Below, piece after piece: positions 33,032 to 52,426 of a stretch of DNA of 64,000 nucleotides; the stretch's first letter is position 1, and the number at the start of each line of letters is the position of its first letter. Under the pieces are notes generated by a model. It was not told the DNA's origin. It saw only the letters and a list, made by a program, of their open reading frames with translations, and did not search any database. Position numbers and translations under genes: made by a program. Source of the DNA: Elsinoe ampelina (taxonomy: Eukaryota); assembly GCA_010093995.1 (NCBI GenBank), contig ML992513.1:124001-188000 (forward strand). Direction: 5' to 3'.

Positions 33032-34052
33032 CGTGAAGCAGAAATGAAGAGATGACCTACCACTGCTACTCACGACTGGCACTGGAGATACCGAGCAGGT
33101 TTTATGTACATTCCGGCCACAGCATACCAGATAACGGCTTTTTCGTCATGACCGGAAGCGATGGAGGAGGTGCGGGGCTACACCTGACTTGTGAAAGTGA
33201 AGGTCAAAGTGCAAATGATTTCCAGAACAAGACGTCATGGCAGAGAGGGTCTGCGTAGACTACATGACGCCTTGGCTTGGGGGAAGAAGCAATAGCCAGT
33301 AGCGAGCGGAGAGATGAAGCTATTGAACAGATTTAGTGCCGGTCCTCCACATACCCCGCCTTTGCCCGCAGCGCCATGTGCCTGGTCGTCCCTCTCGTGC
33401 ATCATCTATGCGAGATGGCATGCGCGCATTCGGTTCAATGTCGGTCCAGGAGGATTTCTCCAGAGTGTTCTTCGATGATCGTCTGTGCATCTCTCCGGAA
33501 TATCGGTTCGGAAAAGCATGATTGCGGACGCGTCTTTGTCACGCTATGTGAAGTAGCAGCAGTCCGCTTCTTCCTACTACGTCCAGGGACGGCTCTCGGA
33601 CTGATTCTGGCTCTCTCCAAGATTCCCTGGAGTGGCCACTGCCGTCTTCTAGTCATCCCGCTGCCGTCAGTGTCGTCTGGCTGGACTTGGCAGCCCGAAG
33701 TGAGGCCGTGAATGTCGTTGCCGCATCCGGGCGTTCCGGGAGGACTTTTTGGTTGCTCACAGGCTGGATGTGACGGTCATGAGTCCATCATGTGCTTGCT
33801 CGGTGTGTTGAGGAATTGACGGAAGGAAAGAGGTTCTGCTCAAGCTTTGATGATGCCCAGACAAGCTTCGGTCATGGAATCGTGGAAAAGTCGGGGTCTT
33901 GTCGGCTTCGTGATTGCCGATAGCCCTAGCCATGACGACAGACGGTCCCGATTTGAGTTTGCAAATGAGTGTCTGTCTTCCCAACGCGACTGGTGCCTCA
34001 GTTACGATATGTAGGCAATGGCCAGTCCTGGACGACAGTTATACCGGTAGCA

Positions 34053-37000
34053 ATGACGACGGTCCAGAATGAAGTCGAAGCAAAGGACGCCCATGGCGAG
34101 AACAGCTCGCAAGGGGAATCTGGAGCCACTCGGACTTCCTCCGCGATCCAAGATGGTGGCAGCAACGAGGAGAAGAGGAAGAAGGACATACGTACGAAGA
34201 TGAAGGAGCTCTGGGCAAAGACAGGCCTTGATCCACCGACTATGATGGTCATGGCAAAGGGTGGATTGGCTCCGACCATTGCTCTGGCGGCCTTCCAAGC
34301 CACCAGCTTTGCAGAGACATACACAACTCTCGGATATCTGGTAGGGGTGGTCTCGATCCTGAGTTTTGCCGTGATGCCACGGGCAAAGTTCCTCCAGACC
34401 ATGTTCTACCTTTTGTTCACGACTTGTTTCGCTACAGCTGTGGCTCTGCTGGCCATCTTCTGCTGTGTTCAAGCAAGACTCAACACGACCCCTGGAGCAG
34501 ACACCCCGGGAACAGGAGGTTCGGGAACGTCAGGTACACCCTCTCCAGGTGCCTCGACTGCTCCGTATAATTCATCTGCCTCTGCTGTTGCGGCCATTTT
34601 CTTGTTTGTGGAGGTATGGTTGATCAACACGATGCGAGCTCGAAATCCTGCTCTCACCATTCCTGGCATCGTTGCCGCTATCTTTGCGAATGTGTCGCTT
34701 GTCTACGCGCCCCAGTTCAGTGCCATGTCTCAAGGTATCAGCTTTGCCAGAAGACTGCTCGAGGCATTCTTGACAGGGTTTGCAATCGGCACAGGTGTCT
34801 CGCTCTTTGTCTTCCCAGTCACAATGCGCCAGGTTGTCTTCAAGGAGATGACTGGCTACATCATGACTCTTCGCAAGGTCATGGGTGCCCACATCACCTA
34901 CATCGAGAGTCTGCAAGAAGCCGACATGTTCAATCGAACGCCAACTGGGTCGCCAGATACGCCGCGCCTACCGCAAGCTCAAGCTATTAAAGATATCATG
35001 GCTGGCCTTGCTGCTTTACACGGCAAGCTGTCTGTGGACCTGGTCATCGCAAAGCGCGAAATAGCCATTGGTAAGCTTGGACCTGATGATCTTCAAGAAT
35101 TGTTCCGTCGCCTACGAGCGTTGCTGCTACCGATCAGTGGACTCAGTTCTGTCACGGACGTTTTTGAAAGAATCACAGAGGAATACGGGTGGGAAGGCAC
35201 TGCCGATGATCGTCCCCTAGAGGAGATTGATGACGCCAACATTCGCCATCGAGCCCAGGCTGTACAAGACTGGCAACAGCTGTCGTCCATGCTCAAGGAC
35301 CCATTCTCGAGAGTTGTGAAGAGTATCGACGAGGGATTTGCTCATGTCCTTTACACCTTGGAACTGGTCCCCAGACCGAAGAAGACAGAAACCGATGTTG
35401 AAGGTAAAGCGGACCTCCCACCATCTCCGGGTGAGGCTGGCTACACTGCCTCATTAGAGAAGCAAGTCGACGAATTCCGCAGCAAGAAACCTAACCTTCT
35501 TCGGAAGTTTGCCGAGCTCAGAAACATTCAGCTGCCTGACGACTTTTTTGATCGACCTCGGACGGCCTCATTCGATGCTCCAGATTGGTACTACCAGAAG
35601 CCAGAGAACTCCCAGCAACGAACGCGATATCGCCGTCAATTATTCCTGGTCTTGTACATGGACTATCTACTGGAATCCATAGCCAGGAGCGTGCACGACT
35701 TTTGTAAATATGCCGACGATAAAGCAGAGACTAAGTTGAAGAGAAAGCGATTGATCGTGCCTGGGATCAAGCGACTACGCAAGTGGATCAGGACATCGGC
35801 CACGCACAAGACGGACAATTACACGGATGAGCAGCATGGGATGAATGAGGACGGAGGCCGATCAACGGTATATCTGGGCGATGCGTACCACAAGCGCAAG
35901 GACCCAGAGCATCTACCGCCGACCAATGCAATTCAACGCTTCGGTGACAGGATAAGAGCTATACCGCACTTTCTTCGTTCTCCTGCTTCCATGTTCGGTC
36001 TTCGAGTGGCCATGGCAACCATGAGTCTCGCCATCATTGCGTATCTGCGAGAGACTCAGCAATTCTACGTCGTGCAGCGCCTCTTCTGGGCACAGATCAT
36101 GGTCACCATCTCCATGAGTCCCTCAGCAGGTCAGAGCGTCTTCAGTTTTGCTTTACGTATTCTGGGCACCCTAGCTGCCATGATCACTTCCTTCATCATC
36201 TGGTATATCGTCGATGGTCGGACACCTGGAGTACTCGTCTTCTTCTGGCTGTTCGTCATGTGGGGGTTCTACATCGTGCTCAAATACCCAAAGATCACAC
36301 CCGTAGGCATGATCTTCTCAGTCACTAACACTCTTATTATCGGCTATGAGCTACAGACCCGCAAGATTGGTATTCAGCTATCCGAGTCGAACGGCCAAGC
36401 ATACTATCCGATATATGAGCTTGCGCCTTACCGTCTGGCTACTGTATGCGCTGGCATCTTCATTGCTTGGTTGTGGACCATATTTCCCTGGCCGATCTCG
36501 GAGCATAGTGAATTGAGAAGAGACCTAGGTGCATCTCTATACTTACTGGCCAACTACTATTCCGTTGTCGACAGCACAGTCCGCGTTCGCATCTCCGGTG
36601 ATCTCCACTACCTAGAAGCCGATCCCTCCTCGCCTCTCTCCCAGCTCGACAAGGCCCGTCAGAAAGTCTTCTCCAAATCGCTCCTACTCCTCCAAGCCCT
36701 CCGAACCCACGCCGACTTTATCAAATTCGACTTTCCCATCGGCGGCAAGTTTCCAGCGGCCACATATCGCAAGACAATCGCAAGGGTCCAGACCATTCTC
36801 AACTTCACCTCTCTCGTCGCCTACTCCTCCCAGACCTTTGCAGATATGTACGCCGCCAACCGAGAAGAGCACTCCGAGAGCGAATGGCTCCGAGACTTCC
36901 GTCGTCTCAGCTTGTCCACAGCTTCGACCTCCCGCGAAGTCACGACCCTGCTCGCCTTGCTCTCGGCATCCGTCTCCTCAGGCCAACCACTCCCGCCCTA

Positions 37001-37301
37001 CGTCAAGGCGCCCGAGCCATATGCGCTGAGCCAAAAATTGGACGATCTCGACAAGGACATCCTTAGTATACACCACCTGGTCGAACCGGGCTATGCGGCG
37101 TTCGCTTGCATGCAGATCGCTACGAGGTGTATAGGAGATGACCTGGCGGCTCTGTTGAGGGATATAAGGGAGCTGGTAGGCGAGATGGATTTCAGCTTTA
37201 CGGTGGTCGAGGGGGTCGAGAGTGGGGAGAGTGTGGCGAGTAGTGGGAGGGCGAGTAAGGATAGTGTGACGAGGAGAAGGGTCGGTGGTGGCGCTGAGTG
37301 A
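34053..37301 (+). CDS. FUSC-like / ArAE-family membrane protein (ER transporter 6TM N-terminal, DUF2421)
   Basis: A ~1080-aa ORF with two transmembrane bundles (TTLGYL...MPRAKFLQ and FGLRVAMATM...FWAQIM...RILGT...IIGYELQ), plus KDPEHLPP and GGKFP. Confidence 0.8.
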   Translation: MTTVQNEVEAKDAHGENSSQGESGATRTSSAIQDGGSNEEKRKKDIRTKMKELWAKTGLDPPTMMVMAKGGLAPTIALAAFQATSFAETYTTLGYLVGVVSILSFAVMPRAKFLQTMFYLLFTTCFATAVALLAIFCCVQARLNTTPGADTPGTGGSGTSGTPSPGASTAPYNSSASAVAAIFLFVEVWLINTMRARNPALTIPGIVAAIFANVSLVYAPQFSAMSQGISFARRLLEAFLTGFAIGTGVSLFVFPVTMRQVVFKEMTGYIMTLRKVMGAHITYIESLQEADMFNRTPTGSPDTPRLPQAQAIKDIMAGLAALHGKLSVDLVIAKREIAIGKLGPDDLQELFRRLRALLLPISGLSSVTDVFERITEEYGWEGTADDRPLEEIDDANIRHRAQAVQDWQQLSSMLKDPFSRVVKSIDEGFAHVLYTLELVPRPKKTETDVEGKADLPPSPGEAGYTASLEKQVDEFRSKKPNLLRKFAELRNIQLPDDFFDRPRTASFDAPDWYYQKPENSQQRTRYRRQLFLVLYMDYLLESIARSVHDFCKYADDKAETKLKRKRLIVPGIKRLRKWIRTSATHKTDNYTDEQHGMNEDGGRSTVYLGDAYHKRKDPEHLPPTNAIQRFGDRIRAIPHFLRSPASMFGLRVAMATMSLAIIAYLRETQQFYVVQRLFWAQIMVTISMSPSAGQSVFSFALRILGTLAAMITSFIIWYIVDGRTPGVLVFFWLFVMWGFYIVLKYPKITPVGMIFSVTNTLIIGYELQTRKIGIQLSESNGQAYYPIYELAPYRLATVCAGIFIAWLWTIFPWPISEHSELRRDLGASLYLLANYYSVVDSTVRVRISGDLHYLEADPSSPLSQLDKARQKVFSKSLLLLQALRTHADFIKFDFPIGGKFPAATYRKTIARVQTILNFTSLVAYSSQTFADMYAANREEHSESEWLRDFRRLSLSTASTSREVTTLLALLSASVSSGQPLPPYVKAPEPYALSQKLDDLDKDILSIHHLVEPGYAAFACMQIATRCIGDDLAALLRDIRELVGEMDFSFTVVEGVESGESVASSGRASKDSVTRRRVGGGAE

Positions 37302-37929
37302 TCTTTGATATCATGGTGGCTGTGTAGGCGTTTCATGGATATCCTGGAATATGGTAGCATTGGCAGGTGTTTCGGTTCGGAAGTACTACCAGGTCACTCG
37401 TCATCGCACAACATAATGAGTACAGCTCTCCGGGATTTGAATCTGTCGGTGATGACCCGCTCAATCTGGAGGGCAGTCGGTTCTATGAATCTGAGGTACG
37501 ACGTCCCTTTCATCTCTCTGACCTGTGGTTTTTGCCTCTTTGGGACTAATGACGTGGCTCACAAAGGTGCGTGAAGTTTTCCGCCACGTGATTCTCACAT
37601 GCTACCACTTCCTCGGATCTCATGATTGGCTCACATTCCTCGCTGGCAGTTCTCACACTTCCGTGATATCTATTTTCTGCGGCAGATCTTTCACGCACTT
37701 CAGGCGTCCATCTCTCACCATAGCCACAGCATCATCTGCAAAGTACTTGCACAGGATTGCGCTGCCTGCACCCTAACCATTCTGGATCATTACCAACAGT
37801 TTAGAACGTGCTTTCTAGGGCATCAGGACAGGTACGACTATCAGGATATGGTGATCGCTACAACTTCGAAGCGAATCTTTGCCTTCCTGACTGATCGATT
37901 CAGTACTTGGGAACATTGCCCCGCCCAGC

Positions 37930-40900
37930 ATGCCACAAGTCTTCCGAGGGCTTTTATCAATCCAGCCTCTATCAACTGCTGACGGCAGTCTCAGTACCGG
38001 TCAAGATCTTGTCGACGGTCTCGGACGATTGAGCATCGACTCCGAATCTGGACTCTCGTTGGGCAATCTGAACGATCTTATCCAAACTCAACGAACAGGT
38101 GCGCATGATCAGTCACAAGTACATCTCAGCTTGGACATCAGCAATACCCACGCGACAGTGGCATACATCGATATAACACAGCGCGACGGATTCAAATCAC
38201 AGCTATTCTTGCATGGTGATAACATCCTTGGGGAGGTGGTTGTTCGTCCAATCGACGACGTCAACCATGTGGATTTATCTACATATCCGCATGTAGCTAT
38301 ACAGACCACGAACGCAAATGTCCTCTCCTGGCACCGCCATTCTTCAGATCTATGCGAGGTCGATCTGACATACAACGGCAAGTTCACGGGATGTCGCATC
38401 TTCGAGCAGTCGATTGGAAATATCGACACACAGCAAAGCGTTCAGGATCTCGCCGACCACTTGCAACGTCCCTGCCGCATCCGCTTGCTACTTCGGCACG
38501 AAGCCAGTCTCTCCTCGACTGGGCCCCCGTTCGGCGCTCGCCCTCATGAGGTGCCTGTTCAGTCCTTCGAACGATTTGACATGCTCGTCAATGAGGAGCG
38601 CCAGATCGGCAAATTTCCCTTCCAGCACCTGCTCCAAGAGGACGGACCTCGACAGAAGCCCACAGTGGTCGATCTCCAAGAGCCTATTGATCCCGACTTT
38701 ACAGCGCGGATCTCCTTCATCTCTGTCAAAGAATTCTTCACGATCATGATCGCTAGTGCGACTGGTCTTGCCGACCGGGAGTTTCTAGAAGAAAGTGTCC
38801 AGGTCAAGGGCACTGGTCAACTGATAGATCTGTCCACAGAGAAATCGAATGGGCTGCTTGGGGTCTTACCTCTTGATCTGCTGCCCGACAAAAACTGCGC
38901 CAAAGGCACCAAAATCAGCATCGACTTCACTGAGTCCTCACAATTTTCCGAAGACGGCTTTCCCAGCTCTTTCAACGGTGTGGTCATCGACAACCCCCCA
39001 GGTATCAACTGCTTGAAATTCCGCTGCGTGAAACTCAGGGGCAAGCCCGACGAGAAGGGTCAAGAAACTTTCAGTACTCGACTTCAGGCAATGGATATCC
39101 GATCTGCCACCAAAATCAGCAAGGATGGCGGTTTTGGGCCTTATTTTGCCGATACCGACCACTTCGATCTTGCTCTCGACGTCTGTCCTGACACAACATC
39201 TGCTGATAGGCGAAGAGACGCTCTGGAGATATTGCGAAGCAGGGTTATCTACCCCCCACCATCATCACCAGAAGTGTTTCTCCGTCATCTTCTCTGCGGC
39301 GGGAGGTTGGACCAAGTTCCAAAACTTGACGCTCTGCAAGATTTGGAGTCTGCTCACATTGAGACCGCTTGTCGAGGCATGAATCCAGCTCAGCTTCAAA
39401 GTATAAGCCTGCTGAGAAACATGACTGGAAACATTGGACTCATTGCTGGACCTCCAGGATGCGGCAAGTCTTTCATCATCAAGCGCATTATCTCCATGTT
39501 CGCTAACCTTCACTTCACCATGGACGGATCTCGTTTTGGCAAAAATACCTTTGATAGAATGCGGGAGGGCATCCCGACTGATGGCTACAGAGCCACCTGC
39601 CCTGTCATGGTCACTGCACCTGTCAATAGGGTACTGAACGATTTGACGAAATCAATTTATGCCGAGCTGCTGAAGATCAAGAAACACCCAGTCATTGTAC
39701 GTCCATTGGCAAGTAGGGTCGAATGCAAGCCGGATATCACAACGAATGATTTCGCTCCGATAGAGCATCAGTATGGATGCCGCGCCATGGTCAACATCAA
39801 GAACACTCAAGACATGATCACGAAGTTCGACAGGAAGCTTCTCTCGAATCCGGCGACTACAACTGCCAATGCCACCATCCGACTTGAAGGCAGTGACAAG
39901 GAAATCTCTATCGACTTGTTCGCCCACTCCATGCCATTCCACATCTACACCGCAATCGGATTAGCCATACCAAATAGCCTCATCAAACATCTCTACGTCG
40001 ACAGCCTCTTCTACGGCCCGCTTCGTCGGTATGTGGCAGGGAAATATGGCGAAAGCTTCAGCTCGACCTACCAGGCCCTGCTGAATCCTGGTCCGATTCT
40101 GACGGACATTGAAGACTACGAGAAAGCTCTGAATGAGATCTACGATGACGTTCATGAACTTGTCATCAAGCATGCCGATGTCTGCCTCGTAACCTTGGCT
40201 CATTCACTCGACCCTAAGTTACAGACTACGCTTCGACCTCGCATCATCCTCGTCGACGAAGCCGCCAAGGCTCGCCCTGACGAGACTCTTCCTTTACTGA
40301 GCGCTTACAGCTCCGCGCACGCAACCGTGCTCGTCGGCGACGAAAAGCAATTGAAGCCTCATCTCCAGTTCCCACCTTCCACGATTCCATACGGTCACCA
40401 GCTCGCGCTCTCGGAATTCGAGCGTCTCCGTCTCCTCGGAGTCCCCTGCGGCCAATTGACTGAACAACACCGCTCAGTCCCTCTGATCAACGACCTGGTG
40501 AACCTCATGTACAATGGCATCCTCCACCCCGTCCCATCGACACTGAACCTACCAGGCGCCGCCAAATTCGCCGCTCACGCTCGCCACCTGTTCCGTTCTT
40601 CCAAAGCCGTCGTCCTTCTCGACCTGAACAACTCCGAGACCCGAATCCGCGGCTCATCATCCTACAACCCCTCCGCAGGCCGCGCCGTTCGTGATGCCGT
40701 AGATTCCCTCCTCTTCCCCTCCCACCCTGGCCTGCAACGCTACACCGCCAAGGAAATCGCCATTCTCTCGCCCTACCTCGCCCAGAACAGCGATTACAAA
40801 GACGACCTCGCCGCCCTGGCTGCCTCGAGGCGCGATCCCAGCGTTGAGGACGTATTCGTGGGGACATTCGACGGTGCGCAAGGAAGGCAGTTTGATGTGG

Positions 40901-41097
40901 TGTTTTGTGATTTGGTGGTGAGTAGGGGTTTGGGGTTCGTGAGGGAGTTGGGGAGGTTGAATGTGGGGTTGAGCAGGGCGAGGTTTGGGTTGGTGGTTGT
41001 GGCGGATACCAAGGGGTTGGAGGGGGCGGTGAGGGGGCATTATCTTGAGAGGTTGTTTCGGTGGTTGAAGAGGGAGGGGACGGTGGTGAGGATGTGA
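37930..41097 (+). CDS. Upf1/DNA2/NAM7-like SF1 helicase (AAA_11/AAA_12), paralog 1
   Basis: Motifs GPPGCGKS, VTAPVN, ILVDEAA, LVGDEKQL, LTEQHRS, LSPYLAQ, TFDGAQGRQFD and RLNVGLSRAR. 1055 aa, no internal intron needed. Confidence 0.9.
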   Translation: MPQVFRGLLSIQPLSTADGSLSTGQDLVDGLGRLSIDSESGLSLGNLNDLIQTQRTGAHDQSQVHLSLDISNTHATVAYIDITQRDGFKSQLFLHGDNILGEVVVRPIDDVNHVDLSTYPHVAIQTTNANVLSWHRHSSDLCEVDLTYNGKFTGCRIFEQSIGNIDTQQSVQDLADHLQRPCRIRLLLRHEASLSSTGPPFGARPHEVPVQSFERFDMLVNEERQIGKFPFQHLLQEDGPRQKPTVVDLQEPIDPDFTARISFISVKEFFTIMIASATGLADREFLEESVQVKGTGQLIDLSTEKSNGLLGVLPLDLLPDKNCAKGTKISIDFTESSQFSEDGFPSSFNGVVIDNPPGINCLKFRCVKLRGKPDEKGQETFSTRLQAMDIRSATKISKDGGFGPYFADTDHFDLALDVCPDTTSADRRRDALEILRSRVIYPPPSSPEVFLRHLLCGGRLDQVPKLDALQDLESAHIETACRGMNPAQLQSISLLRNMTGNIGLIAGPPGCGKSFIIKRIISMFANLHFTMDGSRFGKNTFDRMREGIPTDGYRATCPVMVTAPVNRVLNDLTKSIYAELLKIKKHPVIVRPLASRVECKPDITTNDFAPIEHQYGCRAMVNIKNTQDMITKFDRKLLSNPATTTANATIRLEGSDKEISIDLFAHSMPFHIYTAIGLAIPNSLIKHLYVDSLFYGPLRRYVAGKYGESFSSTYQALLNPGPILTDIEDYEKALNEIYDDVHELVIKHADVCLVTLAHSLDPKLQTTLRPRIILVDEAAKARPDETLPLLSAYSSAHATVLVGDEKQLKPHLQFPPSTIPYGHQLALSEFERLRLLGVPCGQLTEQHRSVPLINDLVNLMYNGILHPVPSTLNLPGAAKFAAHARHLFRSSKAVVLLDLNNSETRIRGSSSYNPSAGRAVRDAVDSLLFPSHPGLQRYTAKEIAILSPYLAQNSDYKDDLAALAASRRDPSVEDVFVGTFDGAQGRQFDVVFCDLVVSRGLGFVRELGRLNVGLSRARFGLVVVADTKGLEGAVRGHYLERLFRWLKREGTVVRM

Positions 41098-42502
41098 GGT
41101 GGTGGGGAGGTGGGGTGGAGGAAAAGGGGAGATGCAGAAGGGCGAGGCGGAGGTCTGAGGGTGAAGGTAGAAGGAGGGAAAGAGAAAAGACATTCTGTTG
41201 ATTTGGAAGAAAGATAGACTGTCGACCTGGTGGGGACTTGGGGTGGGAAGTGGCAGGAATTGTATCGCCAGAGGCGGCGACGTAGAAAGCATATCGAGAG
41301 ATGCTGGAGCTACCAGCAATTCTGGTAGTTTTCTCGCTGTAATAAGGGATCAACAAACATAGAATCACAATTACCCCACAAAGGTGATGCGGTGCACATT
41401 GGGAGATTCGCACGTGACCTGTGCACTTAACCTCGGCTATGGTCACTCCGACTTCGACCCCATTTCAAGAAGCAATTCCTGGACCAACAGTTTTCCATAC
41501 TTCTGCTTTTCTCTGTGATTATCTCGACGGGTCACTATATCGTGTCCGCGCCTTGTGGATTGGGTTGGCGTCTCAGAGTGATATTTGCTACTACGAGGGC
41601 AAGGTGAGCAAATACGTCGCGGCAAGCATGATGACCAGGTGCTGTAGCAGACGCTAACGCCCCTGAAGCTCAACGTGGGAATCGCAGATCTTCTGGTGAT
41701 CCGCTGCCAGTCGATGGACGTGTGTCGCTCGGGCCTGTTCTATGCTAGAGCGATAAGTCGAGGTTGCCCGTGAGCATGCTCCACTACCGCCATCCAATAC
41801 AGCCCGGCATTGCCACTGGTCTACCGCGATCTCTCATGATCAGAACCGCCTCGAATGCTGGCTGCTTGGACAGAGAATACTTCCAATACCATCTGCCTGG
41901 GTTGGCACCACGATGTTTCACAGCGGCTTCTGGTTCCAAGGAGGTGGCAAGAACAAGTCCATCCGTGTTCGGCTTTATTGCCATCAAGCGTCTGTCAGTC
42001 AATGGTCAATCGGTCTAACAGGATACCTGGGTCGCTGTGGTTCTCTACTCTTTTGGTGTCATCGTCACCGAGCCAGCTAAGGTGCAGATGGTATAATTGA
42101 ATACCTGAAACGAGCCTCGACATACCGTCTCTCCTCTGGTCCTTGGCCTTTCTCCGGACTGAAAGATGATTGCGATACCAATTGGATGGTCAAATGTGGC
42201 AGCCGATAGATGTTGAATCTAATCTGCCGCGCAAGAGATAGGTTGGAGTGTGAAGGTAGCCTGCGAATCGTCCCGGACTTCTCTGTCACATGCTCGGTTT
42301 TGCTGTCGATTCACCACGATGACGTGGCGCACTGAGTTTGCTGCTTGCTGGACGCCTTCTCCTACCTTTCCATGTGTCTCCGAGAAATTCCATCTTGCAT
42401 TTTCACCCTGTTCCCTCCCAGGTCCTGCTCTGTTACTTCTTCTATTGGCGACAATCGTATCAGAAGCCTTCTACATGGTGCACTGGCAAGACAGACTCCG
42501 CA

Positions 42503-45500
42503 ATGTTCACTCAAGAGTCCACTCGGAAGGAGTTGAGAGACCTGATGACGGCCCGGATCAGATCTGAGTACATCTCCCATATTCAAAGTGCACGGACAGG
42601 ATTCTTGGAGGAGCATCCTTTTCTGGACCAGCAAGTGGACTTGTCGTCCAGAACTTTCAGTGATCGCATAGACAAGTCACCGACCCCATCGACGAAGGAG
42701 ACGTCGCGCGCTAGGAATAGAATGGAGGACAACTCCTTCAAAACCCCGCAGTCTTCCGCCATCGCCCTGCGCATTTCCAGGTATAGCGAGGTGGGAACAA
42801 CGAAGCTCAGGTCTGCCCAAGATCCACTCGCAGAATTTTCTCGTGCGTCTCCAAATGGCGTGCCCACTACAGACGAAGTCTCGCAATTGATATTTGGGTC
42901 TAACTCAGAGAACGGACCACAAGCAGTCCGCGACAGCTCCGCGACTCTCACTCTGCATGCACCCTCCGGTCATGCTGCAGTGGGTAGGATATCTATCACT
43001 CTGCCAAACACAGCAGACACACCTTCGGATGTCTGTCTCGTCTACCTCGGGTTCGATTGCTTCAATCTGTTGCAAGAGCTGGTAATTGGTGAGGACGAAT
43101 CTGGTCCGTTGCAAGTCCCGATTGCAGGAGGACGAAAGGGCACAAAAGATTGCGCCAGAGGGAGAAAGGTCATCACCATATTCTGTGCACATAGGGGAAC
43201 TGTTGAAGGCCTGTCGGATGACGAATACGACACTGCCCGCAATATTGAAACAAAGAAACAACTCCGAGCGCTACTTCACGGTGGTATACGCATCTCGATG
43301 CTCGTTGAAGCACCCTTAGCAGAGCATCTTCAAGAGTTTAACGCATACATCCTGTCCGAGCTGCGATGGGGCCCAGACTTTCTTCGTTACCTGCCGGACG
43401 GCCAGCGCTCGTACCCGCACGCGAAAGAAATTGTTCTACGCCGCGAAAGACCAGGTGTGAGATTGGCCGCTACCAATGTTTTCTCCTCGCTGGCCGAATG
43501 GTTCTCTGTTATAGCGATGGGATTCAGGTGGATCACAGAAATAGAACTACTAGAAGACTCTCAACCCATGAAGGATGCACGCTTGTGTCTCTTCAAGCAC
43601 TCTGGCCATGTCGAAAATTTAGAAGCATTTCATGGAGTGCTTCTGCGAGGCAGTGCGAGGTTCTCGGTAGGCGACCGTGTTGACATTCGCTTCAAAAGAC
43701 AAGGCCAACTCGCTGATGCGAATCCGAAGCACTGCGCTCTGACCTGGACAGCGAGAGTCATGGAGCAGTCTCAGTCGATGGATAATCAGCACCGCTCCAT
43801 TCACATGAAAGGGCCCGACCGTATCAGAGCCGAAAAGGAGCTAGCTGGCATAAGGACCGAAGAGGCAGAGACCATGGAAAAGGAGTTCGAGCCCATGGAA
43901 GAGCCGTGGAACTTCTTTGATCATGGCATATTCAAGCCGCTCGCAGTCCTTGACGACGTAAAGACCGATGAGGACCTGGCAGCGTATCTCAAGGATGAAT
44001 CCAACATTTTCGCCGTGGATGTGGAGCCTATTGAGGACGATACTATGCTCCAGCGCTTTGACAACGCCATGCCTGGACTGAAACGGCGTATTCGTCTGGA
44101 GGCAGGTTGCTGTCCTCAGGGTTTGGGGGCCACGATCATGCTCATACTGGGCTTTCCAAAAGAAGACCTACCACGTATTGACTTCTATGAAGGGGTCGCG
44201 GAATCTGCCACAGGTCACATGGGCACCCTCGAGGCAGCTCAACTTGAGTTCATCGCCAGTCTTCGAAGCATGACATGTGGAGTTGCATGCCTTCAAGGTC
44301 CAGCTGGAGTCGGCAAGACATTCACTCAGACCATTGCTGTGGCTCCTCACTGCGCGAAGCCGTTGGACGAGGGCTGCTTGGACTCCTCTTGTTCTCGGCC
44401 ACTTCAAACTACACCAGTAACCAGCAAGGTCCGTTTTGGTTGTCCCATTCTTGCACTGGCCCATAGTCACGAGAACGTCGATCTTCAGACCAAGGCACTA
44501 GATGTTTCTCTGTCCAAAGTGAAAGATTGACCGATCGTCATTAGGCAATATCGCCGACAAACCGATAAAAAGGTCGTCATGATGAGATTTCCAAAGCGGT
44601 ATTTGGCAGAACTTGACAAGAGGGGTATGGAGGACTTACTGCAAGCAAGCAGCGACGTGGATGAGGTGAAAGCTGGCATGTTCCTCGCAAGATCGGGTGG
44701 TAGAACGTGGCAAGGTCTTTTCAACTCTCTCAAAACTCGCACTCGTGGCGATCGAGTCATTCCGGACAGTATCAAGGACGATATGTATGTCTACTCCATG
44801 GGGGTGGCCATCCATATAGCTTTAGGGTTGCCACTTCACCGCAGTCTCCAACAAGATCCGCACGTTCAAGACTTACTACAGACAAATCTCGCAAAAGGGA
44901 CGCAGCGCTTCAAACACGTCCGAGCTCTCCTTATAGAGTCTGATCGACTGCCATCAGGCAAGGTCCTAGATCCCAAGAAGCAGGTCAGGCTCAAGGACGG
45001 TATGCGAGACGTGCGCCACTTTGTCCTTCGTGTTGCAGATGCGGTCTCTATGACTGCTTCTCAGAGTCTTGCCAGTCACACGTACGAGTACCTGTGTCCG
45101 ACCGTCATTGTTATCGACGAAGCTCCCAAGATACCCGAGGCTCTGTTATTTGCGATTCGAGGTGTCTATCCTGGATGCCAGCGCTTCCTTCTGGCCGGCG
45201 ACAAGTGTCAAATTGGAGTTCACGTCGACCAACACCAGGAAGATATGCCCACCGTAGCGCAGTATAGGCGATCCTTCTTCGAGCGTGCAATCAATCTCGG
45301 CTACACCAATACCAGCCTGAATGTGACCTACCGTTTCAACAGCACTCTCGCCAACCTCTCACGCATCTGGTACGGCCCATCCTTTCGCTCTGTCCAAATC
45401 ACAGAGCAGCACCCACACCATCTCCGCTATCAGAAAGTTGCCTCACAGGCTTTCGGGACGACCAACAGCCTCATAGTCGTCAATGTCAAGGATGGATCTA

Positions 45501-46000
45501 CAGGTGAGAGCCGAGTCGGCAACTCTCGCACCAATCGCCTCAACGCCCGAGCAGTTGCCAAAATCTATGAGAGGCTTCTCACCAGCCACGATCCAACACA
45601 AGCTCCTTACGAGCCATGCGACATCGGTGTCTTGACTCCATATGGTGCTCAATGCATCAAACTCCGAGACGAGCTTCTCAGTGTCGCTTGCCGCTTGCGT
45701 CCCAAAGCCGCTCTCCCAGATCACGAGCAATACAAACGCAACGTTCGGGCATTGACGATCAACCTAGCACAAGGGCACGAATTCGACGTCGGCATCCTCG
45801 ATATGACGGTGAGTAAGCACCTAGGTTTCGTCCCGGATCCGCAGCGGTTGTGTGTCGCGACGACTCGTGCGAGGTTTGGATTGGTGATTGTTGCGGATTG
45901 GGATGCTGTCAAGATTGCGGCGTTGAACGACACTAGATACGATAGCTGTCAGAAGTTCAGGAAATTGATCATGCATATGGATAAGAATGCGGTGTTTTGA
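42503..46000 (+). pseudogene. Upf1/DNA2/NAM7-like SF1 helicase, paralog 2, with a single in-frame TGA at 44528-44530 (pseudogene or recoded gene)
   Basis: ORFs 42338-44530 and 44579-46000 share one frame. GPAGVGKT lies before the stop. VIDEAP, LAGDKCQ, LNVTYRF, LTPYGAQ, TINLAQGHEFD and RLCVATTRAR lie after it. Confidence 0.8.
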
Positions 46001-46496
46001 AAGGTGGGGTAGTGGAAGTGATTTTGTCTTCGGCGATATATGCTGGTCGAGGTGCGAGGCTGTGCAGGAGTGGAAATAGGGGATGGAAAGATCAGATTTG
46101 TGGTTGGTATGGATCTTGGGATGCTTGGGTAATGATATGATCGCAAATGCAGTTTCTCGTGAACAGATTTCACCAGAGGTAACATGATCAATGTCAGGGT
46201 GAGATATCGTCAACTTCTACGTGTACATTTCTGGCAATTGTATCTGATGGCTGTTTTTTGGTCACGGTCGCAAGCTGTTGTGGATTCTGCCGGAACCCAA
46301 GTCCACTCGATCGTGACCCATGTATACCTGTCAAGTTCTGATGTGTCCTTTGTACCGCCTTGACTCTCTGGCTTGTATGGTTTATTCCATCTTCCCGGTG
46401 TCCAGTCCCCTTGTCATCATTCCCGCCACGCAATTGCCCGGCTTGCGGCTTGCTCTGTAATCCCTTCACCTGCATCTTCTCCAGACCATGTATGCT

Positions 46497-49079
46497 CTAC
46501 CTCGTCTTCTTCAGCACATCCAACGAGGGCGTCGGCATCGGCACAGCTGTCGCGTTCTTGGGTTCACGTAGATAGTCCAGAACCTTGGTCAGAGATCTTG
46601 CGAACAACCTGCTTCTGGCTTTCGGCAGCAGAGTTTCGTCATCAGCGACCACCACCATACCGTATCTTGCTCTAGTTGTCGCCACGCAAATCCTCTTTGG
46701 GTCCGGGATAAATCCGAGTCGGTCGGTCGCAACGACGTCGAGAATGACAATGTCGTACTCCCTGCTCTGCATGTTGTCGATCGTGCTGACTTCGATCTCT
46801 GGAGTCGGTGCATCGGGGCTACGGTCGACGAAAGCTCGCAGCGCCAGGTCGTCCGTAACCTCCTTGAGTGCAGCGTGGTGCAGTTGGTTCTGGCGTGTGT
46901 AGGGACTGATGACGGCAATCTTCGAGATGTCTACGGAGCGACCGTCGTCGTTGAATGCAAGAAGCTTCCTCACAATGTTACATACGGTGTGGACGGCCAA
47001 GGTATTCGTCTGGGAGTCTGTGGACATGCCGTAGTCATATGCGCCTCTGATTTGGGCGAGGACCAAGGGCTTGATGTCGGATTTCCCAAATGCGTACTTC
47101 AGAGCCGCGTGGGATTTGTCGTTGTCAGGGTGCCCCTCAGTGGATGCCATTGAGATAAGACCATTGGGATAGTGGCAGGACGCCAACCCAGCCAGAGCGC
47201 TGTTGAAACGGAAGGTGCGTCTGAGAGTCTCAAATGTCCAGTCTAGGTTGATCATGCGTTCCAAGAGAGATAACCTGTAAAGCGCGATGTGAGGTTGCTT
47301 CTCCTGGTAGCGGTGGACGAGCGGACCCAGCTGAGCTATGTCGCCACCTAGGATGAGATGCTCGACCGAGGGATAGCAGCCCAAGATGGCCATGACATAT
47401 GCCTCCGGGAGTCTACCGGCTTCGTCCACAATGCAGACTCGGGGTGTGATTGCGTTGAACATTGTCTCTGACATTGCGTGTACGGCCGTCGTGCAGACTG
47501 CGTCAGCATGGCGCAGTACAAAATTACGAAGTTCGCATGTGAGGTCCATGAGTTGGTCACTCTCCGCCTCATCCAAGACCTGACCTTTGGCGAGTAACTG
47601 TCGAGATTTGACAGACAATTCGTTAAAGCGGTTCCAGCGACTTCTGTCTTGCCCCTCGTATGCTGAGCTACGAAGCAAACGTATGACAGCATCATCCTCC
47701 TTCATGGCGTCAGATAATTCACCGCCAGCTATAACGTACATGGCGAAACCTAGGGAGTATGGGTAGATCGCGGGAGTGACCCTATTATCTGCAATTGGGC
47801 GAGAGTCGTAGGACTTATTGCTTGCATCCGTCCAGTGGCCGTGGAAGGACCGCATACCGGAGCTCATGAGTTGTGCCACTTTGTGAAATTCTCGAAGGTC
47901 GGGGATAGCTTCGACGAATGACTCCCTCATCTTGGCTGTGTTGATTCCCATACTTTCTTCTCCTTCGACGGTGCCGAACATGTTGTTCTTGTGTTCAGAC
48001 TGTCTTGGAAACACTCTCAAAACTAGAGGGTTTTTCTTGACTTTCAAGAATCGACGATGGAAGTGCAGGCACATCTGATCGGCCCCAACATTGCTTTCGC
48101 ATACTGCCAGAATCTCACATCCGAGACGTTCTTTCTCGTTGGCATCTGAAAGTTCGGGATTGTTCGCCAATGCTTGAGAAGTGCATGCACCGGTTGCCAG
48201 CGTCTTTCCAGCAAAAGGCGAAACAACTGCAGCAAGAGTAGATGTTTTACCAGTACCAGCTGGGCCCTGCAAGCCACTGACACCTTCGGTCGCCGAACGT
48301 TGCTTTTGCATAAAGCTCTGCTGATATGTGTCGAGACCTTCTTCTGCGATCAAAATGTATTCACTCGGAATTCCATCATAAAGATCAGCGCTGGTGACTT
48401 CGTCACCATCAAGGCTCTCCATCAATGCGTACACTGCTCGACTGGCGGCTTTGCGCTTGATGCCGAGTTTGAGGCTCTCCAGACCGTGTGTGAGCCGCAT
48501 ACGTACTGTTGCGTCCGGAACAGTCTTGATGTCGACCTTGAAGCCGTTGTTGGAGTTCTTCATGTATGCCTCCATCGCTTCGGTGTCCTTGATCTGCTCA
48601 TCCGTCCGTAGATGTGCGAATGCTCCGGTGCTGAATGGGTTGTAAGGTATTTCAATCACCTCACGCTCACCTCCCCGGCGTGAGTGATGTGAGGTTGGGA
48701 GACGCTTTTCCTTCTTGTTCGGACCTTTGATATCGATGCAGACATGCCCACTCGCGGCCTTGGCGTACGGTCGTACCACTCTGCCGATCCAAATTTTGTC
48801 GAAGGTTGCCGGATCCTCTCTTGCCAGCTGAGCGGTACGCCAAAATCGAATTTCGACCTTGTCTCCGACTTGCAGGGCATTCGGCTCCCGTAGAATGGCA
48901 TGGAACCCTGTATCCTTGGCTTGATTCTTCTTGAGTCGGTACATGAAGAGACTTCTGTTTTTCAAGTGCCTCTCCTGTTCTATTTCCTCCAATCGGCACA
49001 GGCGGATGGCGACATCGCCACGGGTTTCAAACCAGTTTGCTTGTGTGAATTCGCTACTGCTATCGGAGGTCGCGGACAT
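46497..49079 (-). CDS. Upf1/DNA2/NAM7-like SF1 helicase, paralog 3
   Basis: Motifs GPAGTGKT, IVDEAG, LGGDIAQL, LRRTFRF, ISPYTRQ, TIDNMQSREYD and RICVATTRAR. 860 aa, intronless. Confidence 0.9.
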   Translation of the reverse strand: MSATSDSSSEFTQANWFETRGDVAIRLCRLEEIEQERHLKNRSLFMYRLKKNQAKDTGFHAILREPNALQVGDKVEIRFWRTAQLAREDPATFDKIWIGRVVRPYAKAASGHVCIDIKGPNKKEKRLPTSHHSRRGGEREVIEIPYNPFSTGAFAHLRTDEQIKDTEAMEAYMKNSNNGFKVDIKTVPDATVRMRLTHGLESLKLGIKRKAASRAVYALMESLDGDEVTSADLYDGIPSEYILIAEEGLDTYQQSFMQKQRSATEGVSGLQGPAGTGKTSTLAAVVSPFAGKTLATGACTSQALANNPELSDANEKERLGCEILAVCESNVGADQMCLHFHRRFLKVKKNPLVLRVFPRQSEHKNNMFGTVEGEESMGINTAKMRESFVEAIPDLREFHKVAQLMSSGMRSFHGHWTDASNKSYDSRPIADNRVTPAIYPYSLGFAMYVIAGGELSDAMKEDDAVIRLLRSSAYEGQDRSRWNRFNELSVKSRQLLAKGQVLDEAESDQLMDLTCELRNFVLRHADAVCTTAVHAMSETMFNAITPRVCIVDEAGRLPEAYVMAILGCYPSVEHLILGGDIAQLGPLVHRYQEKQPHIALYRLSLLERMINLDWTFETLRRTFRFNSALAGLASCHYPNGLISMASTEGHPDNDKSHAALKYAFGKSDIKPLVLAQIRGAYDYGMSTDSQTNTLAVHTVCNIVRKLLAFNDDGRSVDISKIAVISPYTRQNQLHHAALKEVTDDLALRAFVDRSPDAPTPEIEVSTIDNMQSREYDIVILDVVATDRLGFIPDPKRICVATTRARYGMVVVADDETLLPKARSRLFARSLTKVLDYLREPKNATAVPMPTPSLDVLKKTR

Positions 49080-49480
49080 GGCTGCTAGATGACTACTGTG
49101 TTCTCCCTCAATTCAATATGGAATCGAGGCTGTCAGTCGAGCTGGTCGGTTGATGAGTGTGGAGGTTGGGGTGGCCGAGCTGATGACGCCGTCGATTGCA
49201 GGAATAGGAGGGACTGGCCTGCGCTGAGTTAGCCGGTGCGGTAAATCATGGTAAGAGCTTTACGAAACCTTCTGTTATGCCTGTTGAGGGTGGGACCTGG
49301 TGAAAGTGGACTTAGCGGGATATATCCTGCGATCGTGAGTCGCTTTGTACATACCGGCGTAATATGTTGTATGCATACGAGATTTTTCGTCTTCTGATCA
49401 GCCGTGCGGTAGGAGTGAGAAGTGCCGTGAATATCGTGTGCCTTGTGCGAGCAACCTTCCTGAAGGTGAAGGTCCAAAAC

Positions 49481-49565
49481 GAGTGAAGATTCAAAATGAG
49501 TAAAGATTCAAAATGAGTGAAGATTCAAAATGAGTGAAGATTCAAAATGAGTGAAGATTCAAAAC
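49481..49565. repeat. 17-bp minisatellite GAGTGAAGATTCAAAAT x5
   Basis: Copies start at 49481, 49498 (one mismatch), 49515, 49532 and 49549, with a degenerate copy at 49464. Confidence 0.95.
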
Positions 49566-50484
49566 AAGACTGATGGAATCGTACCATGTGAAAGTAAAGG
49601 TGTCGCAGTCCTTTCACATATCATCGAAACCAGAAGGCGAAGATTCCGCCCCTATATTGTGCCTCTTCAGAAAGAAACGTTCACCTCACCTCGTTCAAGG
49701 ATTCGCATCACGGACAAATCACCGTCATCGCAGATATAAACTAAGATGTTGAAAATGCCGTCGTTATTCGAAACCAGAAAGACCAGTCGTTGCCACTATT
49801 GACCAGCCTCGAAGCCGCGCGCTCAGCAGAACCAGCATGCCGCATCATCACCAGCGCATTGAATGACCCTACTCGCATACTACCGCCTCACTCCGCCTCG
49901 ACGCCAGCCATAGACCATCGATCCAGCCAAATATATGCCTCCCCGATTCGGCCAATAGACTCTCGATGCCCCGCTAATGATCATACCAGACCTCTCAGAT
50001 GAGGACAGCCATGTATCTCACACGCAGCCTCCACCATTTCTAGACCGACCCTACGGCGCAATGTCGTACAGATGTCGGACATAGCACCGGGCATCTCATC
50101 AAAGAGGCAGTCAGAAAGAGATCCGGCATCTGCGTTCGGCGAAACTGGTGGTAAGCAGCGAGAGTGCTACTGCTGGTGACAAGAACAGAGCATTGCATTG
50201 GCAGGTTTAAGATACGATAACTTGTGCTTGTACTAAGTAAGTGGCAACAAGGTTGTGTCGATGTTGGAAGCAATGCGTGGCAAGCAAAAGCTTCGATGGG
50301 ACGTTGGATACGCCAAGGAATCGCTGCGAAGGTCACGTGCGCACCCTTCAAGCACTGATTTTGACAGCCAATGCTCCAGTCGGGCGACAAAGGCGAAGTC
50401 ATTGCTACAATGAAAATTTTCAGTTGTCTGAATCGTTCTTCATGAGTATTACATGTCTTTTTGAGATGGACCATTTGTCTCGTG

Positions 50485-52426
50485 TCATCGCCCGGCAACC
50501 ATTTCCTGGCCCTTTCCGACCAATTCCTTCGCCCTTCTCAGCTCAGACCGCGTGATCCCCAAAGCATCTACGTATTCCCCGAATGTCATGATGATACCCT
50601 CGAGCCCTTCTTTGAGGGTGGAGAGAAGTTCGTAAACTTCCGGTGCTCTTCTCTCCTTGAACTCTACGTCCGTCCAGTGTGGAGGATATGACTGGATGAG
50701 AGTCTGTATGTCTTGTATCGCAGCCACGATAGCCCTCATGATCTTTCCGATGTCATGTTGGACCTGTCCAAAGTTGTCTTCCTTCAAGCTGCTCACTGTG
50801 AGTTTGCACAATGCATTCGTAGCGTTGTGAATGTTGGAGGCCCGGCTGTGAGGATGGCCGAAGACAATGGCATTCATGCGAGAAGGAAACATGATCCGGA
50901 ATGGGCCTCCAAGTGGCGTACGGAGAAAGTCGATTGCGTAGCTTTGGACCGATTTCGTAATGCTGTTGTAAGCAGAATTATCTGCCTGAGTTTCTGATGC
51001 GATGAAAGATTTGGCCTTGTTTGTCAATGGACTGGACCCCGGTTGTTGGCCCAAGGACTTGGCCACTGCGCCGACACCACTGGCTATCCGCTCTGTTGCA
51101 GAATTGGGATTAGGCGAAGCATTGAAGATGTTCGGATCATCCTTCAGCGGTTGCGAGATGCGCGACCTTGGCTCAGCAACCGGCGCTGGCTGTGGTGCAG
51201 CTGAAGGTAACAGAGCCGTCTGCGCATCCTGCACTGATTTCGATACACCTTGAATCTCAATCAGGCATATCGAGACAATGTCAGCCCACGTTGTAGAACC
51301 CGGCTTTTCAAAGTCGTTGTATATCGTTCTTCGTCGATCTTCGAATCTTTCCGCTATCAAAGATAATTCCCACAGAGCAATGCTATGCGGTAAAGACCGT
51401 CTTGATTTCAAGCCATTGATCAAGCTAGCATTCGGGTCCTTGGAGTCGTTCGTGAGCGGTGAGCCCTTTTTCAAGGGTTCTTGGAGGGCATATATGGTGA
51501 ATGCCAGATTAGTTGTTTGCCAAAGAATGACCAGTAGTGTCCCGGAGAAGATGAATCGTGAGAAAAGGGAGAAGGGATCCGCCAGTCCTGTGGGTCCGCT
51601 GGTCTTGTGAAGCTTGAAGAAAACTTTGCCAATGCTGTAGGAGACGTTCCAAGCTGTGCGCCTTAACAGAAGGTAGTAGATCGCTGTACCCCATACAGAT
51701 GTCACAAAGGTGTTGACGAGTGCACTCCGGAGTATTCTGATCGCATGGCTCTGTAGCTGCGCAACGTTGGCCGTCTGGGGAGTTGGCTGAGTCGTAGTCC
51801 TCCTATCTCCCACCCTCCGAGGAATGTCGAGGGCATCATAATCCCAAGCCAGATGCAGTGTTGCTTGCTCCAATGCCAGCAGGGAGAACATCGTGCGAAG
51901 CATGACCGCTCTCTCATTCAAGCGCATGCGCTCATATGACCTTCCTGGGTCGATCCATGCCAGATTGGCCGACTCGGCGGTACTGAAGATGTAGATCTCT
52001 GAGAACAAAAACCCGGACGTCCAATACCAGACCACCGTCCATATCGCTCTCTTACTGACGAACAGTCGCCAGAACGTCTCGGCAGCTGATCGATCGGTGG
52101 CAGTACCCGGATGAAGGAAGGCTACGCGCAGGACGAAGATGGTGAGGCAGGAGATGAAGAGCAAACCGGTCCGAAGACCTGTCCAGCCAAAGGGGAACCA
52201 GGACCATAATACTGAACTCGTTAGCAAAAAGTGATACGGCTGCGAAGGAAAACCCACGGCTAGGCTTTGCCAGCAGTATGGCTTCTACCCAACACAAAGC
52301 AAGTCCAATGAGCGCCGCGTTGGTGAAACATCTATGTAATGCCGGAGTGAGAAAGTCTTTGTATGGTCGCGCCCGAGGTGCCGTCTTCAAATTGGGCGCG
52401 ACGACGGCGCTCTTTGAAGCGGACAT
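50485..52426 (-). CDS. NDC1: Nucleoporin / spindle pole body membrane protein Ndc1, 2 exons
   Basis: ARPYKDFLTPALHRCF, RMRLNER, several transmembrane helices, PLKKGSPLTNDSKDPNASLINGLK and SLKEDNFGQVQHDI. Confidence 0.88.

Follow-up and report, generated by a model that had tools for sequence, protein, structure and literature searches.

Three large helicase genes lie side by side in a 64,000-nucleotide stretch of the Elsinoe ampelina genome (assembly GCA_010093995.1, contig ML992513.1, positions 124,001 to 188,000 of the forward strand), here called the window, in which all coordinates below are counted. What kind of helicases are these, are all three still intact, and do they form a defence locus? 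A first-pass annotation, made from the letters alone, had read them as a tandem trio of diverged, intron-free Upf1-like superfamily 1B (SF1B) helicases and had proposed a lineage-specific, diversifying array acting in genome defence or non-self RNA recognition. Our analysis indicates that the three genes are probably paralogues from a small, unnamed and apparently ascomycete clade of Upf1-like SF1B helicases, in which two members, H1 and H3, are intact and the third, H2, was recently inactivated. The frames of H1 and H3 are unbroken and that of H2 is broken, the asterisk in the annotated motif KVKD*PIVIR being a real in-frame TGA. The genes and the lesion are located as follows, with H2 and H3 arranged tail to tail:

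37930-41097, plus strand: H1, an intact Upf1-like SF1B helicase of 1055 amino acids in a single open reading frame (ORF)
42503-46000, plus strand: H2, a helicase frame of 1165 codons with one in-frame stop
44528-44530, plus strand: the in-frame TGA, inside the K-x-K-x-x-P-[IV]-V-x-R motif of H2
46497-49079, minus strand: H3, 860 amino acids, intact, predicted to be a bare Upf1-type core, in a single ORF

The ORFs, the Pfam domains and helicase motifs I-VI agree on three neighbouring large SF1B helicase genes at these positions. A hidden Markov model (HMM) scan with Pfam, in which the cut-off for both AAA_11 and AAA_12 is 27 bits, found both domains in H1 (AAA_11, 5.1e-16, 59.7 bits, residues 484-810; AAA_12, 1.6e-23, 83.8 bits, residues 827-1027) and in H3 (4.1e-19, 69.8 bits, and 5.8e-25, 88.4 bits, respectively). 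In H2, AAA_12 was matched after the stop (1.8e-24, 86.9 bits), and the 675-residue part before the stop, scanned alone, had no Pfam match. Motifs I (GPxGxGK[TS]), II (DEA), III (GDxxQ), IV (xR), V (TxxxxQ) and VI (RAR) are present in all three proteins (alignments A1 and A4), with QS in place of QG in motif V of H3; judged by their sequences, H1 and H3 keep all ATPase/helicase motifs. Pairwise BLASTP comparison gave 31% identity for H2 and H3 (820 columns, E 5e-111), 23% for H1 and H2 (893 columns, E 2e-39) and 23% for H1 and H3 (784 columns, E 1e-37), each alignment beginning well upstream of Walker A and running to the C-terminus. At the level of primary sequence, this similarity is far beyond chance, and the earlier description of the genes as strongly diverged paralogues is borne out by 23-31% pairwise identity over 784-893 columns.

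The trio lacks the hallmarks of the named helicases of this group. The Pfam scan found no match to the CH zinc-knuckle domain (PF09416) in H1, H2 or H3 at E<=0.01, and none in the trio to SEN1_N (PF12726), to the Dna2 PD-(D/E)XK nuclease (PF08696) or to NF-X1 zinc fingers; an NCBIfam scan returned only sub-threshold matches, to the IGHMBP2 family and to a PLuB helicase. With lengths of 1055, 1165 and 860 residues, compared with ~1700-2200 for Sen1/Senataxin, the proteins are also too short for Sen1, so that the first-pass annotation was right on both the missing CH domain and the length.

That annotation had further singled out a set of shared pre-helicase features. These stretches, of the GDKVEIRF, KVKKNP and SLGFAMY types, are indeed present in all three proteins (alignment A1). 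An AlphaFold2 (AF2) model of H3, made from a family alignment of 28 rows (predicted local distance difference test, pLDDT, 82; predicted template modelling score, pTM, 0.83), overlays residues 295-905 of human UPF1 along its own residues 10-852, with Z 30.3, a root-mean-square deviation (rmsd) of 4.5, 567 aligned residues and 23% identity. Across the UPF1 core structures 2gk6, 2wjv and 2xzo, the overlay covers 567-587 residues at Z ~30 and 21-23% identity; ranked lower are IGHMBP2 (Z 27.9), Senataxin/Sen1 (Z 22-25), Dna2 (Z 23), Aquarius (Z 20-22) and ZNFX1 (Z 20.9). By this model, H3 is a bare Upf1-type core consisting of stalk, 1B, RecA1 with the 1C insertion, and RecA2; it would begin directly at the stalk, and the GDKVEIRF-type stretch is predicted to fall in the 1B barrel, with stalk helices on either side. 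For H1, residues 1-470 were modelled with AF2 at moderate quality (mean pLDDT 63.9), and this model matches the UPF1 core 2gk6 in Foldseek (E 3.2e-4, probability 1.00). Two parts of H1 are used below:

37930-38619 (about residues 1-230), plus strand: N-terminal module of H1, possibly pleckstrin-homology (PH)-like, without a Pfam family
38701-39321 (residues 258-464), plus strand: stalk and 1B beta-barrel of H1, containing GTKISIDF, from VIA and Foldseek

In VIA, residues 258-464 of the H1 model match human UPF1 291-452 (Z 7.0, rmsd 4.1, 152 aligned) and also yeast Upf1 226-386. Since the H1 and H3 models overlay the stalk and 1B of UPF1, the shared features are canonical parts of Upf1-type cores and not a special domain, and all three proteins carry the full core with each of the four parts named for H3.

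We then placed the trio among its relatives. A profile of the three proteins, searched against 1.84 billion representative proteins, returned 29,346 matches at E<=1e-3 and 419 at E<=1e-30; matches extending over the pre-helicase part numbered only about ten, namely P0010 (583 bits), P0011 (517), P0012 (497), P0013 (415) and P0014 (341), together with P0016-P0019 and P0022 at 210-259 bits. Further top matches come from this genome or a close relative and represent the trio itself: P0007 is H1, P0009 is the H2 model and P0015 covers the final 217 residues of H3. The full-length outside relatives of H1 are P0010 and P0011, which are 34% and 31% identical to it. A CH, SEN1_N, Dna2 or NF-X1 Pfam domain was found in none of the 48 best outside matches (E<=1e-5). 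Among the 24 Protein Data Bank (PDB) sequences matched by the same profile are UPF1 (5.9e-41), ZNFX1 (2e-31), Aquarius (2.6e-26), Sen1 (6.6e-26), IGHMBP2 (4e-21) and Dna2 (4e-14), the last being the weakest helicase match. Close relatives are rare: a word-index search with H1 returned two proteins, H1 itself and one 24%-identical NF-X1 helicase, and a search with H3 returned six, of which one is close, Elsinoe batatas KVT40_007620. The same kind of search with family alignment A2 gave 24 proteins at E<=1e-20, with P0010-P0014 not among them. The Atlas clusters nearest to H1 are eukaryotic, and Ascomycota is their commonest phylum. A metagenome scan with A2 has no bearing on gene neighbourhood, as only 2 of its 143 pattern matches encode a relative (both ~25% identical) and tblastn showed both to be generic helicases nearer to P0033 and P0037 than to the trio.

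Two trees of the helicase core were built, a quick one of the 49 rows that were left after P0037, P0045, P0048 and P0006 had been dropped from the candidates for a fragmentary or duplicated core, and a careful one of 30 rows hand-picked from the 49, whose rows do not include Hrr1 or SAD-3. The two trees agree. In the careful tree, H1 groups with P0010 and P0011 (support 100/100), and H2 and H3 are sisters (96/93) joined by P0012-P0014 (99/99). The family clade, made up of the trio, P0010-P0014, P0016, P0019 and P0022, received a Shimodaira-Hasegawa-like approximate likelihood ratio (SH-aLRT) support of 99 in the quick tree and 85/96 in the careful tree, and is nested in a 23-row clade of unnamed helicases (100/99). 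The rows with NF-X1 fingers or helicase-AAA fusions (P0008, P0157 and P0002) form a separate clade (100/100), and P0003, named 'regulator of nonsense transcripts 1', groups with a Sen1-like row outside the 23-row clade. In both trees, therefore, the trio lies inside one unnamed clade and is not scattered over separate housekeeping clades. Two duplications would account for it, an older one separating the H1 type from the H2/H3 type and a later one separating H2 from H3. Because the H1 and H2/H3 subclades each have outside relatives, the first split predates those relatives; the second, although later, would still be old at 31-34% identity. This branching does not support a recent lineage-specific diversification.

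Compared with the Upf1/NAM7 core (human UPF1 295-914), the trio has the same domain order and the same SF1B motifs, but it lacks the CH zinc-knuckle and the SQ-rich tail, stands in a separate clade and carries, in H1 and H2, a different N-terminal module. ZNFX1, ZNFX-1, Hrr1 and SAD-3 are likewise Upf1-like SF1B cores with long accessory regions, and the ZNFX1 core matches both the H3 model and the trio profile at the values given above; unlike ZNFX1, the trio has no NF-X1 fingers, and the NF-X1-finger helicase P0008 and the helicase-AAA fusions keep to their own clade. The trio belongs with the unnamed fungal AAA_11/AAA_12 proteins often labelled 'DNA2/NAM7 helicase-like' (P0010-P0058; clade 100/99), which share its layout, the core coming after an unassigned N-terminal part of ~200-700 residues, whereas the clustering of three such genes and the condition of H2 set this locus apart. 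Besides Upf1, Sen1, Dna2 and the silencing helicases, fungi encode many other Upf1-like helicases, and the unnamed ones among them have no role that we know of. Literature listings on fungal Upf1-like helicase expansion and on helicases of Elsinoe genomes show nothing on this clade.

How far, then, does the defence proposal carry? A lineage-specific, diversifying array in genome defence or non-self RNA recognition, comparable to SAD-3/Hrr1, ZNFX1 and MOV10, fares best among the alternatives, and we nevertheless consider it unlikely. The clade is small and seemingly patchy in distribution, its copies are strongly diverged, and losses are seen across lineages (the H2 stop, the H2 region of a related organism and a truncated Elsinoe batatas H3 model, all described below), a pattern that is frequent in defence genes; these losses fit a gain-and-loss regime of that kind and fit plain dispensability equally well. 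According to a preprint (10.1101/220111), ZNFX-1 and its fungal orthologues Hrr1 and SAD-3, which lack its zinc fingers, are Upf1-like helicases that act in small-RNA silencing. Since Hrr1 and SAD-3 lack those fingers, domain content cannot decide orthology with the trio; the rarity of close relatives would argue against the trio being a widely conserved orthologue group of the Hrr1/SAD-3 type. Weighing against a defence array are the age of the split between H1 and H2/H3, with outside relatives on both sides and no recent local burst, and the position of the trio outside the NF-X1/ZNFX1-type clade (100/100). No nuclease, sensor, RNA-dependent RNA polymerase (RdRP), Argonaute or other silencing gene was found beside the trio among the neighbouring genes checked. 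The cores also match MkoA, a helicase of the bacterial anti-phage system Mokosh, in PADLOC (H1 3.7e-38, H3 1.4e-31), and as a defence signal these matches were rejected: Upf1 (6.6e-83), a Sen1-like helicase (8.1e-88) and an NF-X1 helicase (3.2e-68), used as controls, all match more strongly, with 278 bits for Upf1 and 294 for the Sen1-like control against 76-130 bits for the trio. Because the controls outscore the trio, the MkoA matches only restate that its members have an Upf1-like core. Mokosh further differs in its phospholipase D (PLD) nuclease domain or partner, and no PLD domain was found in the trio or its neighbours.

The variable N-termini noted in the first-pass annotation do differ between the three proteins, and the difference proves to be the presence (H1, H2) or absence (H3) of one common module. 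In H1 and H2, ~250-330 residues precede the stalk. Here alignment A3 reveals a conserved pattern, '..DIS.THAT.AYI.I ... LH..N ... Y.G.F.G ... L..PC.I.L', in a module common to H1, H2, P0010, P0011, P0012, P0017, P0019, P0020 and P0026; an HMM of the H1-type N-terminus, run on 175 collected proteins and the three helicases of the window, matched P0019 (1.4e-7) and P0017 (8.8e-6), and the N-terminal sequence MxxxFRGLLS is common to H1, P0010 and P0011. Pfam returned nothing for the N-terminal parts of H1 and H2 even at E<=10, an Atlas search with H1 residues 1-260 gave no usable match, and tblastn (E<=1e-3) found neither a remnant of the module upstream of H3 nor further copies in the 64-kb window. 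The module is family-specific, present in H1 and H2 and absent from H3. In the wide search of VIA, the best structural match to H1 residues 1-228 was the PH domain of USP37 (Z 7.5, rmsd 3.0, 103 aligned), and most of the 50 structure matches listed for this region were PH, PTB, EVH1 or Ran-binding folds at Z 5.7-7.5, obtained with the model of pLDDT 63.9. A PH-like fold may be taken as a lead for the H1 module, at the level of a model.

The second question concerns H2. Its reading frame is identical before and after the stop, and the TGA, which is followed by C, occupies the variable position just before the invariant proline of the motif. The genome's own model, P0009, treats 44519-44572 (18 codons) as a GT..AG 'intron' of 54 nt, whose removal would take out both the TGA and the conserved motif. 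A contig of 4428 nt from run X3, a different sample from the same coded organism, covers 41666-46093 without a gap or a difference and with the 'intron' unspliced. Because this contig runs through the TGA region unspliced, the stop is genuine in that sample and the 'intron' stays in; the 54-nt 'intron' of P0009 looks like an annotation device bridging the stop. H2 is otherwise healthy in its motifs, its agreement with the consensus and its branch length (0.82, against 0.76 for H3, in the careful tree), from which we conclude that the lesion is recent. Repeat-induced point mutation (RIP) was rejected as the origin of the stop, RIP indices being normal in all three genes. H2 is probably a transcribed pseudogene. 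It is distinctly improbable that H2 still functions, either through UGA-C read-through at a useful rate or as a split helicase formed by the 675-residue N-terminal part and a separately translated C-terminal part. Such a function would fit the retention of motifs I-VI, conservation on a par with that of the intact paralogues, a transcript assembled at full length, and the stop itself, as TGA followed by C is the leakiest stop context in eukaryotes; but the stop falls in a motif conserved across the family, the corresponding region of a related organism is too short for the protein, which argues for dispensability, and re-initiation after a frame of 675 codons is, to our knowledge, not expected in eukaryotes. 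Having weighed this, we retain the reading of H2 as a recently inactivated copy.

Two gene models are corrected by these observations, that of H2, in which the 54-nt 'intron' conceals the stop, and that of H3, for which P0015 is a fragment. P0015 (46497-47150) comprises 217 C-terminal residues and is the only H3 model seen from this genome, despite the uninterrupted frame of 860 codons; any N-terminal H3 model may sit hidden in the Elsinoe batatas cluster of the representative library.

The first-pass annotation had called the genes intron-free and had named a complete lack of expression among the findings that would count against its proposal. The description is correct for the coding regions of H1 and H3, and spliced introns are found in the leaders of H1 and H2; a complete lack of expression is contradicted for H1 and H2 by RNA-like contigs with spliced joints. 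That runs X3 and X4 contain spliced RNA follows from their GT..AG joints, two of which define these features:

37494-37564, plus strand: intron of 71 nt, GT..AG, joint 37493->37565 in one X4 contig, in the H1 leader or the 3' untranslated region (UTR) of the upstream gene
41601-41665, plus strand: intron of 65 nt, GT..AG, in the long H2 leader, joint 41600->41666 in X3 (depth 36.6) and X4

A further joint, 52211->52258, marks a minus-strand intron of the neighbouring gene Ndc1 in both X3 and X4. For H1, X3 record 1 covers 33500-40916 with no joint within the coding sequence, and H2 is covered whole by the X3 contig; the coding regions of the two are unspliced, with introns only in the leaders. 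H3 is represented by three thin X3 pieces (46317-47181, 47297-47447 and 47769-47991), and for its 5' part no contig is listed from X3, X4 or X5 over 48082-49349, which is not evidence of silence. Run X5, labelled as another organism, contains short fragments that match H1 and H2 at >=99%, with adapter at a loose end. The H2 leader (41666-42502) runs for more than 830 nt after the intron and holds several short upstream ORFs (41-81 codons), an unusual arrangement in a fungal mRNA.

The history of the locus can be followed in related genomes and in its surroundings, for which three more features are needed:

34053-37301, plus strand: upstream flanking gene for a membrane protein (ArAE_2_N/FUSC_2)
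49449-49581, no strand assigned: 17-nt tandem repeat with unit GTGAAGATTCAAAATGA, six overlapping 48-nt register copies, ~370-500 nt upstream of the H3 ATG
50485-51927, minus strand: downstream flanking gene, nucleoporin Ndc1

In a related organism, coded C, the order flank-H1-H3-flank is kept and is collinear on one DNA contig of 150,943 nt. At 41444-45753, however, 2052 unalignable letters stand in place of 4308 bases of the H2 region, an interval that is therefore too short for a full H2. Differences from organism C amount to 391 of 3811 positions (10.3%) in the upstream gene (33501-37311), 492 of 3768 (13.1%, 13 gaps) in the H1 region (37575-41342), 262 of 3748 (7.0%, 34 gaps) in the H3 region (45753-49500) and 197 of 1907 (10.3%) on the Ndc1 side (50483-52389); H3 thus diverges less than the flanks and H1 more; this may mean that H3 is strongly constrained or that its history differs. 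The 17-nt repeat stretch differs in length in the same organism (joint 49500->49611, with 110 bases skipped and 41 other letters inserted). In Elsinoe batatas, KVT40_007620 is identical to H3 at 562 of 623 positions, or 95% over 591 aligned residues. A stretch of 32 residues, over motif Ia and the KVKKNP motif, is missing from it, and its last residues read '...RRTFVSTAL'. This ending fits a one-base frameshift at motif IV; it may be a genuine lesion or may stem from a faulty assembly or a poor gene model.

The conserved gene order also bears on a foreign origin. It is very improbable that the cluster travelled as cargo in a mobile element, is what remains of one, or was acquired recently by horizontal transfer. 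The family is rare, and SF1 helicases do occur in some mobile elements; yet neither direct nor inverted repeats were found on the flanks of the cluster between 30000 and 56000, no transposase-like gene was found among the neighbours, and there are no extra copies of the trio in the 64-kb window. Apart from the tandem array of 17-nt units ahead of H3 and a short match, at the coding level, of H2 to H3, the cluster has no repeats around it. GC content (0.52-0.53), GC at third codon positions (GC3), CpG, two RIP indices and codon use of the trio resemble those of neighbouring genes, and the same order and flanks occur on the 150,943-nt contig of organism C. At this locus, the idea of transposon cargo, which the first-pass annotation had named as a reason to doubt its own proposal, thus finds no footing. 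We give almost no credence to the view that housekeeping Upf1, Sen1, Dna2 or Hcs1 genes came to stand side by side by chance: UPF1 is the best PDB match in both sequence and structure, but CH, SEN1_N and Dna2 nuclease domains are absent, identity to the UPF1 core is only 21-23%, all three proteins sit in one clade apart from the Upf1 and Sen1-like rows, and orthologues would have hundreds of close relatives, whereas the search with H1 returned nothing but H1 itself above 24% identity and that with H3 a single close relative.

Several points weigh against our own reading of the trio as two intact members and one recently inactivated member of an ascomycete clade. The 11-row family clade has a bootstrap of only 85% in the careful tree, and the label ascomycete, which we word as apparent, comes only from the nearest Atlas clusters and the named weaker matches. 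H2 departs from the consensus at 10 of 53 conserved columns, compared with 9 for H1 and 7 for H3, with its catalytic motifs all kept, and its stop could be a strain-level null allele, or its product could still be made by read-through. The PH-like call for the H1 module comes from a moderate model (pLDDT 63.9) at Z 6-7.5, below the VIA caution line of Z 8. The RNA labels of X3 and X4 are guesses, and contig depth cannot rank expression. The choice between RNA and DNA as substrate would follow from the fold alone. A role in RNA silencing or defence would be only one possibility among several processes.

On balance, we favour the following model. H1 and H3 would most likely be ATP-driven 5'->3' translocases or remodellers acting on single-stranded RNA, possibly DNA, as their predicted folds suggest. 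The N-terminal module of H1 may serve as an adaptor for recruitment or partner binding, H2 would be a recently inactivated copy, and the group as a whole would be accessory, evolving by gene gain and loss. A bolder version of this model, which we regard as a long shot, holds that an H1-type protein with a PH-like adaptor and an H3-type bare core form the conserved two-component module of an undescribed and patchy ascomycete system for RNA surveillance or defence, in which evolution proceeds by gain and loss, H2 is being lost, and the old adjacency of the genes reflects joint function.

Other parts of the window were also surveyed. In the gap between H3 and Ndc1, a separate contig of ~500 nt (49747-50257) is present in three runs (depth 131 in X3, 8.2 in X4 and 16.1 in X5); no ATG-started ORF of at least 60 amino acids lies wholly inside it, and it could be the 3' UTR of Ndc1 or a separate small or non-coding transcript. 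Elsewhere the window carries housekeeping genes, including those for Utp25, a JAB/MPN protein, a DMAP1/SANT protein, an RGS/DEP protein and a kinase. An ORF of 951 amino acids at 9454-12309 has three He_PIG Ig-like domains. A second ORF, of 916 amino acids (15289-18039), has only a sub-threshold match to AAA_13 (25.6 bits, cut-off 36), and we list it as an uncharacterised P-loop or coiled-coil protein.

In summary, the locus provides a compact entry point to this clade of helicases, with two intact and diverged members, one of them with an N-terminal module, and a sister copy disabled by a single lesion. Without a knock-out phenotype, it would be a case of ordinary paralogue decay. If, however, knock-outs were to alter small-RNA biology, the control of transposons or virus load, these genes would represent a new accessory branch of eukaryotic RNA surveillance.

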